A DNA stretch of 64,000 nt from an uncultured Methanosarcinales archaeon. Lineage in GTDB: Archaea > Nanobdellota > Nanobdellia > Woesearchaeales > UBA10107. This document shows positions 6,377 to 22,785 of this stretch, in pieces. The stretch lies in contig OZ246410.1 in the NCBI GenBank assembly GCA_965231065.1, positions 42,396 to 106,395 of the forward strand, given 5' to 3'. Position numbers and translations under genes: made by a program. The notes beneath the pieces are model-generated. The model worked only from the letters and a program-made list of their open reading frames with translations. It had not been told where the DNA came from and searched no databases. The stretch's first letter is position 1. The number at the start of each line of letters is the position of its first letter.

Positions 6377-8131
6377 ATGCCAATCAGAAGCCCGATATGC
6401 ACGGTAGTCGGTCATGTAGACCATGGAAAAAGTTCTATTCTAGACTGGATCAGAGGCAGCTCTATTGTTTCTGCTGAGCCAGGCGCGATCACACAGGCGA
6501 TCGGCGCATCGAATGTTCCATTGGATGCCATCAAAAGAAAATGCGGTGACTTGCTGAAAGCAGTCAATATCCAATTCAATATTCCTGGACTTTTATTCAT
6601 TGATACTCCCGGTCACGCTGCATTTACGAACTTACGTAAACGAGGCGGCAATCTCGCTGACATCGCCATCTTGGTCGTCGATATCAACGAAGGATTTAAG
6701 CCGCAGACGATTGAAGCGATTGAAATACTGAAAAGTTACAAGACACCATTCATCATCGCTGCGAATAAGATTGATCTGATCAATGGTTGGCAGCAGAAAG
6801 AGAAGTTATTGCTTCCCGATATCACGGCACAGCATGCGCACATACAGCAGGCATTTGAAGAAAGACTGTATGGCCTAGTACGAAGTCTGTATGATGCTGC
6901 ACAATTAGATGGTGAACGATTCGATAGAGTCTCTGATTACACAAAACAGATCGCGGTGGTTCCCTGTTCAGCACGAACCGGCGAAGGACTTCCTGAATTA
7001 TTGATGACCATCATCGGCTTGGCGCAGAAATATCTTGAAAAAAGTCTTGAGATCAAGGAAGGAAATGCCAAAGGCATCGTCCTTGAAGTCAAAGAGGTCA
7101 AAGGATTAGGAAAAGCGCTTGACACTATTATTTACGACGGCACGCTGAAGGTGAATGACATACTTGTTGTCGGTGGATTGGAAAAACCAACGGTAACAAA
7201 AGTAAAAGCGATGTTTGTCGCTGCCGCTATGGGAGAATTGCGGGATAAGAAGACAAAGTTCGAATCAGTCAAGGAAATCACTGCTGCGGTCGGTTTACGT
7301 ATCTCGGCGAATGATATCGAAGATGTCGCATCCGGTATGCCGTTGATTTCTGTTGAAAAAGATGATATCGAAGAAGCGAAAGAAGAAGTGCAGAGAGAGA
7401 TTGAAGAGGTTACACTACAAACCGAGGAAGAAGGTGTTGTTATCAAAGCAGATTCTCTAGGAAGTTTGGAAGCGATGGTTGTGTTATTAAAAGAACGTAA
7501 CATCGCAGTATCTTCTGCATCCATTGGCAACATCACAAAAAAAGATATCGCCTCTGCAGAGACACAGTATGAGAAAGATCCGTTCAAGGGAATCGTACTA
7601 GGATTCAATGTTAATTGCGAGATTCCAACCGGCAAGGTCAAGGTATTGACCAACAATGTCATCTATCGTTTGTTGGAGGAGTTTGAAGCGTGGAAAGTTG
7701 CGCAGGAAAAGGTTCTTGAGCAGGTCGAAGTCGATAAGTTGGTACGTCCTTGTAAGATACAGTTATTGAAGAACTATGTATTCAGACAGTCAAATCCAGC
7801 AGTCATCGGTATCGAGGTTCTTGCAGGTAAATTGAAGTCAGGCATGCCGTTGATGAATGAGAAAGGAAAACAAGTTACTATTGTGAAAGGCATCCAGATG
7901 GAGAAAGAAAGTGTTACAGAACTGGAAGAAGGCAAGCAAGGTGCTGTTTCCATGGATAACGTTACTCTTGGCAGGACGCTCATGGGAGATGAGATATTAT
8001 ATTCAGCGATACCGGCAAATGATTTCATGAAACTGAAGGAGTTCAAGAAAGCATTATCTCCGCGGGAGATCGAGGTCGTAAAAGAGATCGCGAAGATCAT
8101 GCGAGAGGACAATCCGGTCTGGGGAATATGA
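6377..8131 (+). CDS. infB: Translation initiation factor aIF5B (IF-2 homologue)
   Basis: 584 aa. GTPase motifs are GHVDHGKSSILD, DTPGHAAF and ANKIDL. The length is typical of aIF5B. Confidence 0.9.
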   Translation: MPIRSPICTVVGHVDHGKSSILDWIRGSSIVSAEPGAITQAIGASNVPLDAIKRKCGDLLKAVNIQFNIPGLLFIDTPGHAAFTNLRKRGGNLADIAILVVDINEGFKPQTIEAIEILKSYKTPFIIAANKIDLINGWQQKEKLLLPDITAQHAHIQQAFEERLYGLVRSLYDAAQLDGERFDRVSDYTKQIAVVPCSARTGEGLPELLMTIIGLAQKYLEKSLEIKEGNAKGIVLEVKEVKGLGKALDTIIYDGTLKVNDILVVGGLEKPTVTKVKAMFVAAAMGELRDKKTKFESVKEITAAVGLRISANDIEDVASGMPLISVEKDDIEEAKEEVQREIEEVTLQTEEEGVVIKADSLGSLEAMVVLLKERNIAVSSASIGNITKKDIASAETQYEKDPFKGIVLGFNVNCEIPTGKVKVLTNNVIYRLLEEFEAWKVAQEKVLEQVEVDKLVRPCKIQLLKNYVFRQSNPAVIGIEVLAGKLKSGMPLMNEKGKQVTIVKGIQMEKESVTELEEGKQGAVSMDNVTLGRTLMGDEILYSAIPANDFMKLKEFKKALSPREIEVVKEIAKIMREDNPVWGI

Positions 8132-11550: not shown

Positions 11551-11579
11551 GGTGAATGTGAATTCTTATGCGTTTGAAA

Positions 11580-11685
11580 TGGGGCTGCCCGGATTCGAAC
11601 CGGGGTCACAAGGTCCCAAACCTCGAAGGATAACCAAGCTACCCCACAGCTTTACGCTGCTTTTAGGCTTACCAAAAGCAGTCCC
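11580..11685 (-). tRNA. tRNA-Pro(UGG) with a 32-nt non-canonical intron between positions 3 and 4
   Basis: By hand fold, exon 1 is GGG (11685-11683). Exon 2 (11650-11580) is GCUG UG GGGUAGCUUGGUUAUCCU U CGAGG UUUGGGA CCUUG UGAC CCCGG UUCGAAU CCGGG CAGCCCC A. After splicing the acceptor is GGGGCUG/CAGCCCC. Position 37 is G. The mature length is 74 nt and no CCA is encoded. Confidence 0.8.
11651..11682 (-). other. BHB (bulge-helix-bulge) tRNA intron, 32 nt
   Basis: The RNA reads UUACAG-UACG-GGA-CUGCUUUU-(GGUAAGCCU)-AAAAGCAG-CGUA-AAG-CUGUGG. That gives a 6-bp outer helix, a 4-bp central helix, two 3-nt bulges and an 8-bp inner helix. Confidence 0.75.
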
Positions 11686-11728
11686 GTACTGTAATTAGGA
11701 TAGCTTACAGCCTACACTTTCGAGAACG

Positions 11729-12340
11729 CTACCCATTTTTAAACCTATCGCTAAAGCCCAAGGAGGCCAAGAACTGCGGTATACTAGCTTGTCTGACCTT
11801 AAAATGCATGAATTTGGTAATCTTGCCGTCCTTTCTATTGTTACCTTTTGTGACCCAAATATCAGTGGTATCAACATTTAGCTCTTTTAACATATCTCTA
11901 AGGTCTTGCATGAATGCCTTGCCATTGTCAAGAATCATCTCGTTCTTTGCTAATCCGAATCTGATTCTTTTACTTCCGTTTTCTTTCCAAAATCCACCCT
12001 CACAGGCAAAGGCAACTTGCAGATATGATTTGCTAAATGTTGGATTTTCCTTTATCCATGCAGGAACTAAGAATTCTTTATTCACCTTGCTTCCTTTTGG
12101 TGTGCCAATCGAATGTAAAAATCTGGCAGTTTCACGATGGAATGCTCTATATTTTCTACTATGACCAAATCCTTGACCATCTTCATATCTTCCGACTAGA
12201 TTGAATTTTTGTTTGACCAATGATTTGAATTCCGACAGCATATCTTCTCTACTTGAAGAGAGATAAAAACATTTCAGATCTTCGGCAAGATGGCCGTCAA
12301 AAGTAAGGTAACTTACGATTCTTGTGGCGGCTTCGTCCAT
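11729..12340 (-). CDS. Free-standing double-motif LAGLIDADG homing-endonuclease-like protein
   Basis: The two motifs are IVSYLTFDGHL and YLQVAFACEGGFW, with the typical FLHSIGTPKGSKVNKEFLVPAWI segment between them. I place the start at ATG (cat 12338-12340). The track ORF begins at a GTG at 12376. Confidence 0.6.
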   Translation of the reverse strand: MDEAATRIVSYLTFDGHLAEDLKCFYLSSSREDMLSEFKSLVKQKFNLVGRYEDGQGFGHSRKYRAFHRETARFLHSIGTPKGSKVNKEFLVPAWIKENPTFSKSYLQVAFACEGGFWKENGSKRIRFGLAKNEMILDNGKAFMQDLRDMLKELNVDTTDIWVTKGNNRKDGKITKFMHFKVRQASIPQFLASLGFSDRFKNG

Positions 12341-20400: not shown

Positions 20401-20916
20401 ATGATAGGAGCAAGTGATATTCTAAATAAAGAACCCGAGCAATTTGAGACTTATTTATTTGTGATTTTGGCACTCGTAATACCAGGTATGGCTCACATAT
20501 ACGCCACAAATCATGGAGTATTTATCTCTAGTTGGTCACAGCTTATTTCCATCCTTTTACTTTCAGTTTATTTTTCCCTACCTCTTTTTTTAATTGGATG
20601 GATAACAGTAATGTTTCTCCTATCCAAAATACCAAAGAAAATATCCAAACAAGAAGGAAAAACATTGCCTGCAACACTATCAAGAGCAAGACTTTTAGTA
20701 GGTTCTGTGGCAAGCCTACTTGTATATTTCATATCAACTCTTTTCGTAAGTCAAACTGTAGGATTATTTAAAAAACAACTACCGATACTAAATCTTAGTT
20801 ATTTAATTTTGTTTGGGGGAGGGGTTGTAACTAATTTACTTGATAAAAAGAAGTATAGTTGGTTGATACTTTTTTTGATTATGTATGCCTTATTTTTATT
20901 TATCTGGATTCATTAA
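20401..20916 (+). CDS. Membrane protein
   Basis: 171 aa with 4-5 hydrophobic segments. Confidence 0.5.
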   Translation: MIGASDILNKEPEQFETYLFVILALVIPGMAHIYATNHGVFISSWSQLISILLLSVYFSLPLFLIGWITVMFLLSKIPKKISKQEGKTLPATLSRARLLVGSVASLLVYFISTLFVSQTVGLFKKQLPILNLSYLILFGGGVVTNLLDKKKYSWLILFLIMYALFLFIWIH

Positions 20917-22328
20917 CCCTTCACCACACCCAATGGCTTCAATCTGACAACAGCCCGCGCAATGCCTAATTCATCAGAAACTTTCACAACTTCGTCGATA
21001 TCTTTGTAAGCGCCTGGCGCTTCTTCTGCCAAGCCACTCATGGAATGTCCTCTGATTGTAATCCCTTGTTCTCCTAATTCCTTAACCAAGGTCTGTCCTT
21101 TGAATTCGTCTTTAGCTTGATGTCTTGACATGACACGACCAGCGCCATGTGCTGTTGATCCTAATGATTCAGACATTCCTTTCTCTGTGCCGACCAATAC
21201 GTATGAAGCAGTTCCCATGGAGCCGGGAATGATGATTGGCTGTCCTATTTTTCTGTATTTCTCTGGTATTTCTAATCTGCCAGGACCGAATGCACGGGTA
21301 GCGCCTTTACGATGCAAATACACTTTTCTCTTAACACCATCAAATACATGCTCTTCAACTTTAACGATATTGTGAGCCACATCATACATCGTCTTTACAT
21401 CTTCACGCTTAATGCCAAATATCTTAACAAAGCAATTTCGAACGTTATCACCGATAATAAACCTATTGCACCATGCGAAATTAGCTGCAGCCTTCATCGC
21501 TTTGAGATATTCATCACACAATTGTGTACCGGAAGGAGCATACGCTAATTCTCTGTCGGGTAATTTCGCGAGTTCAGCAGGGAAAGCCTGTTCAATCTTC
21601 CGTAAGTAATCAGAACAGACTTGATGTCCTAAACCGCGAGAACCGCAGTGAATCATATAGACAATCTGTCCTTTCTTCAAGCCGAACGCCTTCGCTGCTT
21701 TTTCATCAAAGATCTGATCGACATATTGTATCTCGACAAAATGATTACCCGATCCGAGACTTCCTAATTGATTCTTACCTCGTGATCGTGCTTGCTCGGA
21801 GACTTTTGAATAATCTGCGCCTTTCATCGAGCCTGACTCTTCTGAATTTTCCAAGTCATCCTTCAAACCGATCTTATGTTCAAATGCCCAATTAGCGCCT
21901 TTGTTAAGAACATCATTCAATTCCTCTTTGGAAAGCTTGAGATTTCCTTCACCGACACCTGCAGGAACTGCTAGGTAAATAGAATCGATCAACTCTTTCA
22001 TTTTTGTTTCGACGTCTTTAAGTGTCAGAGGCGTTGTCATCAATCTGACACCGCAATTGATATCGTAACCGGTAACACCCGGAGAAATTCCTCCTTTTTC
22101 AAAGTCTAATGCGACAACACCACCGATTGGCGATCCATAGCCGCGATGGCAATCTGCCATTACTACGACTTTGTAAGCGCCGGGTAATGATGCTAAATTT
22201 TTAGCTTGTTCAAGTGATTCATCTTTCCTTACGATCTCAAGAAGCTTCTCATTACTGAGAACATCAACAGGAACTTTCGTGCCGACTATTTGCCAGTCAT
22301 TCTTATTCACTTTCTTAAGTTCGACCAT
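20913..22328 (-). CDS. rtcB: RNA-splicing ligase RtcB
   Basis: 471 aa with GSGNHFVEIQ, HCGSRGLGHQ and HGAGR. Confidence 0.9.
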   Translation of the reverse strand: MVELKKVNKNDWQIVGTKVPVDVLSNEKLLEIVRKDESLEQAKNLASLPGAYKVVVMADCHRGYGSPIGGVVALDFEKGGISPGVTGYDINCGVRLMTTPLTLKDVETKMKELIDSIYLAVPAGVGEGNLKLSKEELNDVLNKGANWAFEHKIGLKDDLENSEESGSMKGADYSKVSEQARSRGKNQLGSLGSGNHFVEIQYVDQIFDEKAAKAFGLKKGQIVYMIHCGSRGLGHQVCSDYLRKIEQAFPAELAKLPDRELAYAPSGTQLCDEYLKAMKAAANFAWCNRFIIGDNVRNCFVKIFGIKREDVKTMYDVAHNIVKVEEHVFDGVKRKVYLHRKGATRAFGPGRLEIPEKYRKIGQPIIIPGSMGTASYVLVGTEKGMSESLGSTAHGAGRVMSRHQAKDEFKGQTLVKELGEQGITIRGHSMSGLAEEAPGAYKDIDEVVKVSDELGIARAVVRLKPLGVVKG

Positions 22329-22362: not shown

Positions 22363-22785
22363 TTATAGGTCCAGAACGACCTGTACCATTGCTTTGCCTG
22401 GCATATCCTGGATAATCATGTCATTATAGGTCACTGCCTTGATCGATGTCTTGAAATCGTACTTTTCGATGCCGACATCACCAGCAACGGTCGCGTTTAA
22501 CTTATATTTCACACCTTTCTGTATCTTCAATGAAACAACCGTGCCGATAACAAAATGTTCTACGTCTATCAAATAAAGAAATTTTTCAAGAAATTCATAT
22601 AATAATGATTTCAGATCTTCTGTTTCTATCTCGATGGTCTTCTGCAAGACCTGCTCGACTTCTTTGACTTCAACAACAAGATCAGTCAATGCCAATGCAG
22701 CATTGGAGAATGCTTCTTCCAATGATTCACCATATGCCTGAAACTTCGCATCAGCAGTATGCTCGAGAAATTTGTATTTGTCCAT
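22363..22785 (-). CDS. Archease (RtcB activator)
   Basis: 140 aa. The N-terminus is MDKYKFLEHTADAKFQAYG. It lies directly upstream of rtcB. Confidence 0.85.
   Translation of the reverse strand: MDKYKFLEHTADAKFQAYGESLEEAFSNAALALTDLVVEVKEVEQVLQKTIEIETEDLKSLLYEFLEKFLYLIDVEHFVIGTVVSLKIQKGVKYKLNATVAGDVGIEKYDFKTSIKAVTYNDMIIQDMPGKAMVQVVLDL

Follow-up and report, generated by a model that had tools for sequence, protein, structure and literature searches.

How can a tRNA gene yield a functional tRNA when the first three nucleotides of its acceptor stem stand apart from all the others? This question is raised by the tRNA-Pro(UGG) gene in a 64,000 nt stretch of archaeal DNA (hereafter the window, meaning the whole stretch that was analysed; coordinates without a locus handle are positions in it). 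The gene lies on the minus strand, where 32 nt part G1-G3 (11685-11683) from G4 (11650) in our reading of the sequence. We conclude that it is very probably a functional tRNA-Pro(UGG) gene carrying a 32 nt archaeal bulge-helix-bulge (BHB) intron between positions 3 and 4 (hereafter 3/4). What we observe directly is a splicing motif that is conserved and covaries, a cloverleaf restored exactly by removal of the 32 nt, a promoter-like element displaced upstream, and genes for RtcB and archease. The predicted parts of the gene are as follows.

11683-11685, minus strand: exon 1, G1 G2 G3; G1 closes the central helix, and G2 and G3 are nucleotides 1 and 2 of the 5′ bulge
11651-11682, minus strand: the 32 nt BHB intron, A CUGCUUUU GGUAAGCCU AAAAGCAG CGUA AA
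11580-11650, minus strand: exon 2, G4-C72 (11650-11581) and the discriminator A73 (11580), beginning G4 CUGUGGGGUAGCUUGGUUAUCC

A bulge-helix-bulge motif at position 3/4 of tRNA-Pro(UGG)

Exon 2 comprises the D-arm, the anticodon arm (UGG), the variable loop, the T-arm and the 3′ acceptor strand CAGCCCC, and CCA is not encoded. The 5′ splice site would fall directly after G3, and the GGG, which is unchanged in 12 of 12 homologues, would pair with C70-C72 once spliced. In accordance with this arrangement, the Rfam tRNA model matched the gene at model positions 4-67 only, with 37.7 bits, while the other three tRNAs of the window gave end-to-end matches of 59-63 bits. ARAGORN run on the raw sequence called an uninterrupted 76 nt tRNA-Pro(tgg) at 11579-11654 on the minus strand, whose acceptor stem contains three A·C mismatches. 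With the 32 nt removed, it called a 74 nt tRNA-Pro(tgg) with a perfect 7 bp acceptor stem. An earlier reading of the same sequence (the preliminary description) had held that the tRNA is split after nucleotide 3 by a 32 nt intron, whose removal joins GGG to GCUG and restores the acceptor stem, and had proposed the ARAGORN run as a check; both the coordinates and the homologues described below bear it out. It had also named a fold with some other contiguous 5′ acceptor strand as the observation to look for on the opposite side. The Rfam model starts only at position 4, and the contiguous strand used in the raw ARAGORN call, UAAAGCUG, was rejected for its three A·C mismatches. As the interruption goes unnoticed by ARAGORN and by the Rfam model, although each reports the gene, automatic annotation misplaces the tRNA 5′ end, and genomes of this clade could seem to have no sound tRNA-Pro(UGG).

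The precursor contains a BHB motif extended by helices on both sides (hBHBh′). The outer helix, UUACAG/CUGUGG, has 6 bp including two U·G pairs, and its leader strand occupies 11694-11689. The central helix, UACG/CGUA, has 4 bp, the 5′ strand being made of the leader UAC (11688-11686) and G1 and the 3′ strand of the intron CGUA. On either side of it lie two 3 nt bulges on opposite strands, GG|A and AA|G, to which the intron contributes its initial A as the third nucleotide of the 5′ bulge and its final AA as the first two of the 3′ bulge. The inner helix, CUGCUUUU(GG)/(CC)UAAAAGCAG with its loop, has 8 bp and can be extended to 10. The flanking helices (outer, 6 bp; inner, 8-10 bp) are thus longer on both sides than the 2 bp required at least of a BHB motif, and a cut after the second nucleotide of each bulge yields the 74 nt tRNA-Pro(UGG). 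Every helix and bulge given in the preliminary description (6 bp outer helix, UACG/CGUA, GG|A, AA|G and 8 bp inner helix) was present. The 70 nt region folds at -29.1 kcal/mol (z = -4.1; RNAfold) into essentially this structure. Since exon 1, the intron and exon 2 follow one another in order and without gaps downstream of a single promoter-like element, the gene is neither a split nor a permuted tRNA gene.

Could the motif be a chance hairpin beside a 5′-defective tRNA pseudogene, or could the contiguous strand called by ARAGORN be the true 5′ acceptor strand? The uninterrupted 76 nt call speaks for such a reading, and so does the frequency of weak BHB-like arrangements (4+4+4 bp, G·U allowed, intron of 14-60 nt), of which the window holds 45 and shuffled windows 31-52, as expected by chance. 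A strong motif, with an outer helix of at least 6 bp, a central helix of 4 bp and an inner helix of at least 8 bp, occurs only once over the two strands of the window, at tRNA-Pro, and once in total over 20 shuffled windows, so that about 0.05 are expected per window. Together with the compensatory changes in 12 sequences, the conserved tRNA-Pro/L37Ae locus and the nearly invariant exon 2, this makes the chance hairpin or contiguous strand a very improbable explanation.

Homologues, covariation and the 5′ leader

We scanned genomes, one per species, with an exon 2 pattern and obtained 91 matches, mostly in Woesearchaeota, Pacearchaeota and Nanoarchaeota bins and some in Thermoplasmata; exon 2 is nearly invariant over these matches. 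The GGG is contiguous with GCUG in 86 of the 91 genomes, and the other five (L030, L036, L047, L077 and L093) carry the intron, with ...GUACGGGA...CGUAAA 5′ of GCUG as in the window. Further intron-bearing copies were collected by a metagenome scan and from contigs reached via the neighbouring gene, giving 12 distinct homologous sequences from Woesearchaeota/Nanoarchaeota genomes and metagenomes, all interrupted at the same 3/4 position by introns of 28-37 nt. The claim that a BHB intron at 3/4 makes use of the 5′ leader is therefore backed by 12 homologous pre-tRNAs with compensatory changes and by 86 intronless genomes. The gene order tRNA-Pro, L37Ae, RpoP and prefoldin beta is common to intron-bearing and intronless loci, and the L37Ae neighbour is kept in 50 of the 75 intronless loci checked. 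This shared order indicates that the intron-bearing and intronless loci represent one orthologous gene rather than paralogues or pseudogenes. As far as seen, the 3/4 intron is limited to this one gene.

The natural variants show where the motif is under constraint. The GGG and the following bulge A are invariant in the intron-bearing set, and the 3′ bulge is AAG, with AUG in one case. The central helix occurs in five versions, always of 4 bp: UACG/CGUA, UAUG/CAUA, AGUG/CGCU, AAUG/CAUU and GAUG/CAUU. As a MAFFT alignment of the full precursors misaligned the variable inner helix, it was replaced by one of 36 columns, cut back to the ends of the helices (11 distinct rows), on which pairs were counted. 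Standard pairs fill 89.7% of the cells, compared with 18-51% in controls with the partners displaced by 1-3 columns. All 11 rows (100%) keep the central helix paired, with two-sided changes at three of its four pairs; the inner helix is 94.5% paired, with two-sided changes at all five of the counted pairs. Overall, 9 of 15 pairs show two-sided changes, and the covariation score was reached by none of 500 shuffles. The outer helix varies from 1 to 6 bp over the relatives and is followed by another block of 8-10 bp.

Several observations pull the other way. The minimum-energy fold given by RNAfold is shifted by one pair, to ACG/CGU plus a U·G4 pair with a bulge AAA and a central helix of 3 bp, so that the motif called perfect in the preliminary description is so in the canonical register and not in the minimum-energy fold. 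We rejected the shifted register for cleavage, as the acceptor stem would then contain one A too many and as all homologues conserve the 4 bp register; the latter was chosen because, with cuts behind the second nucleotide of both bulges, no other register regenerates the tRNA. In L097, L102 and L113, the outer helix beside the splice site has only 1-2 bp and then an internal loop, which makes their motif less strict. No EndA splicing endonuclease was recognised in the window, either in the Pfam annotations of identical contigs or in a direct scan of 10 unannotated open reading frames (ORFs). This matters little because the strict hBHBh′ motif is, to our knowledge, a substrate for all EndA types. 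A second, uninterrupted tRNA-Pro(UGG) may exist elsewhere in the genome, and the joining of G3 to G4, the release of the intron and the processing order are predictions from the sequence.

The motif depends on a leader, which comes with a promoter-like element farther upstream.

11736-11750, minus strand: promoter-like element cgatagg + TTTAAAAA, with a TATA-like box at 11743-11736; its promoter function is suggested by the sequence
11686-11712, minus strand: 5′ leader of about 27 nt, ...GGCUGUA AGCUAUCCUA AU UUACAG UAC, with the start placed by TATA spacing

The first T of the TATA box lies 58 nt before G1 in the window and 47-64 nt before it across the intron-bearing alleles. A cgata(g)atttaaaaa block is also found 5′ of several other intron-bearing alleles, most clearly in L077, L093, L102, L109 and L111. 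By comparison, the first T of a TTTAWAW box is 30-35 nt before G1 in 47 of 59 intronless relatives (L004-L094), with a mode of 31, so that the box lies about 25 nt farther upstream in the intron-bearing alleles. As the TATA is displaced there (47-64 nt versus mostly 30-35 nt), the motif-building leader is a specific property of the intron-bearing alleles. The spacing in the intronless relatives suggests little or no leader and hence nearly leaderless tRNA transcripts, such as those reported for Nanoarchaeum equitans. The acquisition of the intron thus appears to have been accompanied by a rebuilt promoter and leader.

The upstream shift leaves room for a leader that pairs with the D-arm region as well. 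In the precursor 11715-11580, whose leader includes the nucleotides UUACAGUAC, the block AGCUAUCCUA (11705-11696) can pair with U8-U17 of exon 2. Contiguous leader:exon 2 pairs numbering 8-10 are found in 11 of the 12 homologues, and the variants of the block, AGCUAUCC, AGCUGCCC, GGCUAUCC, AGCUACUC and AGCUACCC, differ only where pairing is kept. The paired precursor thus forms an extended rod that carries the splice sites, and the 5′ half of its D-arm stays occupied until the RNA refolds after splicing. The leader:D-arm pairing, the displaced promoter and the gene upstream of the tRNA, to which we return below, were not part of the preliminary description.

Two further features of the 5′ region were noted. 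The leader starts with GGCUGU (11712-11707, minus strand), which equals tRNA positions 3-8 and is also present in L030, L077, L093, L102 and L109; in minimum-energy folds it pairs with CAGCC of the 3′ acceptor strand to form a pseudo-acceptor stem in the precursor. GGCUG(U) as a mimic of the acceptor strand is restricted to the close relatives of the window and missing from the distant intron-bearing ones, and was not used as evidence. In addition, some relatives carry more than one apparent intron in tRNA-Pro(UGG): two in L111 (3585-3770; 3/4 and ~59/60) and three in L113 (3575-3835) and L115 (3585-3800; 3/4, ~37/38 and ~59/60 in both), the positions being visual assignments on the cloverleaf. 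In these three, the T-loop introns did not fit the strict hBHBh′ motif in our scan. L118 contains, at 12-103, a tRNA-Ile(GAU) gene with a 16 nt intron in the anticodon loop (ARAGORN).

Proposed processing and comparison with known systems

We propose the following pathway for the maturation of tRNA-Pro(UGG), in which the start, the cuts, the ligation and the order of events are all suggested by the sequence. Transcription would start ~27 nt upstream of G1 from the upstream-displaced TATA. The leader and exon 2 would then pair, forming the 6 bp helix at the 3′ splice site and a further helix of ~10 bp with the D-arm region; the leader UAC and G1 would pair with the intron CGUA into the 4 bp central helix, and the intron would pair internally. 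EndA would cut both bulges behind their second nucleotide (GG|A and AA|G); RtcB with archease would join G3 to G4. Only then could the 7 bp acceptor stem form, after which RNase P would remove the leader and CCA would be added last. From this geometry we infer that splicing precedes RNase P, an order that the preliminary description had put as a necessity. Removal of the leader first would destroy the motif because the leader supplies the entire 5′ strand of the outer helix and three of the four nucleotides in the 5′ strand of the central one, and the unspliced precursor would offer RNase P no acceptor stem. The leader-dependent motif thereby imposes a testable order, splicing before 5′ maturation.

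The expected exon-joining enzymes are encoded in the window, as the preliminary description had pointed out, and precomputed Pfam annotations of identical contigs confirm both genes.

20913-22328, minus strand: RtcB RNA ligase (PF01139)
22363-22785, minus strand: archease (PF01951)

They probably act in the splicing of tRNA-Pro; their presence adds little to the argument because they lie ~9 kb from tRNA-Pro and are of the kind usual in archaea. An extra loop in DPANN endonucleases has been linked to more disrupted tRNA genes (PMC5829648), and the less strict motifs and extra introns of the relatives fit this report. RNase P was covered by an Rfam scan of the window. In L118, a gene for the RNase P protein Rpr2 lies directly downstream of tRNA-Pro (1100-1411), so that RNase P components are encoded in some of the relatives at least.

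Insertion at 3/4 is known as an extreme case from certain Thermoproteales tRNAs (PMC4090602; Sugahara et al., 2008, as summarised there). The review agrees with the preliminary description, which had called 3/4 introns rare and assigned them to Thermoproteales. The insertion point and the kind of motif are the same in both groups, and an exon 1 of 3 nt means that the outer helix must draw on nucleotides that precede the mature 5′ end. Additional introns at ~37/38 and ~59/60, as in multi-intron Thermoproteales tRNAs, seem to occur in some relatives of the window. The host here is a distant, uncultured Woesearchaeota/Nanoarchaeota-type DPANN archaeon with ~42% G+C and not a thermophilic crenarchaeon, and the likeness is one of position and motif. 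What we describe is accordingly a rare but known intron type in a new lineage, which extends the extreme 3/4 position from thermophilic Crenarchaeota to DPANN archaea. One Woesearchaeota genome has been surveyed for disrupted tRNAs (PMC5829648). In the literature that we consulted, coverage of which was incomplete and gives no proof of novelty, we found no 3/4 intron in Woesearchaeota and no endonuclease gene linked to a tRNA BHB intron.

In the split tRNA genes of N. equitans, also a DPANN archaeon, pairing between leader and trailer creates the BHB motif (PMC4090602). There, as here, a long helix made from sequences flanking the tRNA presents the splice sites to EndA. In contrast, tRNA-Pro(UGG) would be spliced in cis from one transcript, the leader pairing with exon 2 instead of the trailer of a second transcript, and the leader would stay on the RNA after splicing and need separate 5′ processing. 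The canonical archaeal intron at 37/38 shares the two 3 nt bulges 4 bp apart, cleavage behind nucleotide 2 of each bulge and RtcB as its ligase. It leaves the acceptor stem, D-arm and T-arm intact, whereas the 3/4 intron blocks the acceptor stem and sequesters the 5′ half of the D-arm.

The LAGLIDADG-type gene upstream of the tRNA

How such an intron was gained is a further question, since a review describes the mechanism by which BHB tRNA introns are gained or moved as unknown (PMC4090602). The gene directly upstream of tRNA-Pro(UGG) bears on it.

11729-12340, minus strand: LAGLIDADG endonuclease-like gene, 203 aa from ATG 12340, the start also used by the gene callers of the assemblies; GTG 12376 would give 215 aa

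The gene lies outside the intron, and its 3′ end overlaps the tRNA promoter: the TATA region falls within the last codons S-D-R-F-K-N of the ORF. The protein of the window matches Pfam LAGLIDADG_3 with E = 1.2e-3 and 19.5 bits, below the family cut-off of 22.5. Most of the 51 homologous clusters carry a PF14528 annotation, with the precomputed matches marked faint or weak. The motifs LTFDGH (D27) and CEG (E126) do not vary in an alignment of 21 members, whose identity falls as low as 35%, and a profile alignment places D27 and E126 at the positions of both LAGLIDADG catalytic acids, opposite ADG and CDG in the endonuclease domain of the TliVMA intein. The AlphaFold model of the window protein has a mean predicted local distance difference test score (pLDDT) of 91. 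Foldseek matched it to an intein homing endonuclease, I-Tsp061I and I-DmoI (E = 1e-7 to 1e-8, identity 9-14%), and also to the non-catalytic WhiA. I-DmoI and I-Tsp061I are LAGLIDADG endonucleases encoded inside archaeal rRNA BHB introns. Judged from this model, the protein has the double-motif LAGLIDADG fold, with two motifs of an acidic residue and a Gly each in the order alpha-beta-beta-alpha-beta-beta-alpha. No homologue was found in phage records.

In each of the 10 distinct gene-bearing contexts examined (the window, L047, L097, L109, L111, L113, L114, L115, L117 and L118), the gene directly precedes tRNA-Pro(UGG), while the region farther upstream varies between aRF1, a SET-domain gene, a topoisomerase gene, a lysine-rich protein gene and nothing recognisable. 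Seven of these contexts have the 3/4 intron; the other three (L114, L117 and L118) lack it and have a differing 5′ sequence, GGGAUUG, GGGAUAG and GGGGUUG, respectively. An intronless tRNA-Pro allele carries GGGGCUGUGGGGUAGC, and the gene was absent from all 75 intronless loci in which the 5′ end is the canonical GGGGCUGUGGGG and no less than 800 nt of sequence was available upstream. Five intron-bearing lineages (L030, L077, L093, L101 and L102) also lack the gene, and since the intron persists in them, the gene is not needed for splicing. L102 is a close relative of the window, with an aRF1 80% identical, and there aRF1 abuts the tRNA. A six-frame search with a hidden Markov model found no LAGLIDADG remnants at E < 1 in gene-less intron-bearing and intronless loci. 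We considered whether the gene might once have been internal to the intron and rejected this, as no orphan GGG or old exon 1 was found upstream of it.

These associations raise the possibility, which we regard as rather unlikely, that the 3/4 intron and the upstream gene form, or once formed, one mobile unit. In such collaborative homing, which would extend our explanation of the intron, a free-standing LAGLIDADG endonuclease would target the uninterrupted 5′ end of tRNA-Pro (GGGGCUGUGGGG...) and the intron would protect its carrier; we put this forward only tentatively. Equally speculative is the copying step, in which break repair would put the gene, the leader and the intron into intronless alleles and so explain both the origin and the spread of the intron. 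The idea draws on the constant position of the gene whatever lies farther upstream, the invariant catalytic acids, the fold shared with endonucleases of archaeal BHB introns, and the gene's distribution over intron-bearing, altered and canonical loci. Its presence in the window and absence from L102 fit as well, as does the retention of its last codons as a promoter in the gene-less intron alleles L077, L093 and L102. A copy with an in-frame stop in L104 (9675-10457), compared with the intact copy in L097 (3256-4038) next to the same tRNA-Pro sequence, may be decaying. On the other hand, the activity of the enzyme and its target are predicted only, the associations of gene and intron are not phylogenetically independent, and the window protein stays below the Pfam cut-off and is without relatives in the phage records. 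Moreover, judged by pairwise identity, the gene diverges in step with the adjacent L37Ae, prefoldin and RpoP genes, which points to long vertical co-inheritance and not to recent horizontal spread.

The same parallel with flanking housekeeping genes suits another view, that the gene is a domesticated resident devoid of homing activity, perhaps a DNA-binding factor or just a gene whose 3′ end supplies the tRNA promoter. This is quite possible, if somewhat short of probable. LAGLIDADG folds have been domesticated as DNA-binding factors, of which WhiA is among the fold matches, and the TATA box of the tRNA is encoded in conserved C-terminal codons, DRFKN or, in a second subfamily, NKFIN. On the side of the tRNA, the intron would be an ordinary, vertically inherited BHB intron, linked to the gene by shared ancestry in one clade of Woesearchaeota; its persistence in the five gene-less lineages agrees with this, and we give it not quite an even chance. 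However, a domesticated function does not readily account for both catalytic acids being invariant in 21 members, for a gene that is dispensable between close relatives and pseudogenised in L104, or for its never being found with an uninterrupted canonical target.

There is a precedent for the tentative homing scenario in F-CphI and the psbA group I intron, for which collaborative homing has been shown (PMC6083498). In both cases an endonuclease-like gene stands beside an intron-containing gene, the intron would interrupt the presumed target, and the gene never occurs with the uninterrupted canonical sequence. The psbA intron is a self-splicing group I intron, and F-CphI has an Endo VII motif and demonstrated cleavage, whereas tRNA-Pro(UGG) has a protein-spliced BHB intron, a predicted LAGLIDADG-type protein and vertical-looking divergence. 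The gene resembles those of I-DmoI and I-Tsp061I in its single-chain double-motif fold of ~200 aa and its tie to an archaeal BHB intron, but their genes lie inside the intron, while the gene described here is upstream of the tRNA gene and outside the 32 nt intron.

Two things set this locus apart from a routine intron. The precursor has visibly been remodelled to suit the intron, its promoter having moved and its leader being able to pair with the D-arm region, and the locus is tightly linked to an endonuclease-like gene. The strict link offers a concrete and testable candidate for the movement of BHB introns. If the mobile unit were real, it would provide the first DNA-level mobility mechanism for a short, protein-spliced archaeal tRNA intron and a BHB counterpart of collaborative homing.

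Finally, two observations concern the sequences upstream of the tRNA in the relatives. The promoter context aaatagttttataaat lies ~23 nt before G1 of tRNA-Pro in the intronless relatives L032, L053 and L080, and ~21 nt before the ATG of the LAGLIDADG gene in L097 (3350-3400) and L047 (6490-6530). The gene appears to occupy the place of the tRNA 5′ end, with the new TATA inside its 3′ end serving the tRNA. In gene-less L030 and L077, the upstream interval contains paired small adjacent ORFs (6545-7228, 89+136 aa, and 1601-2411, 121+170 aa, respectively).

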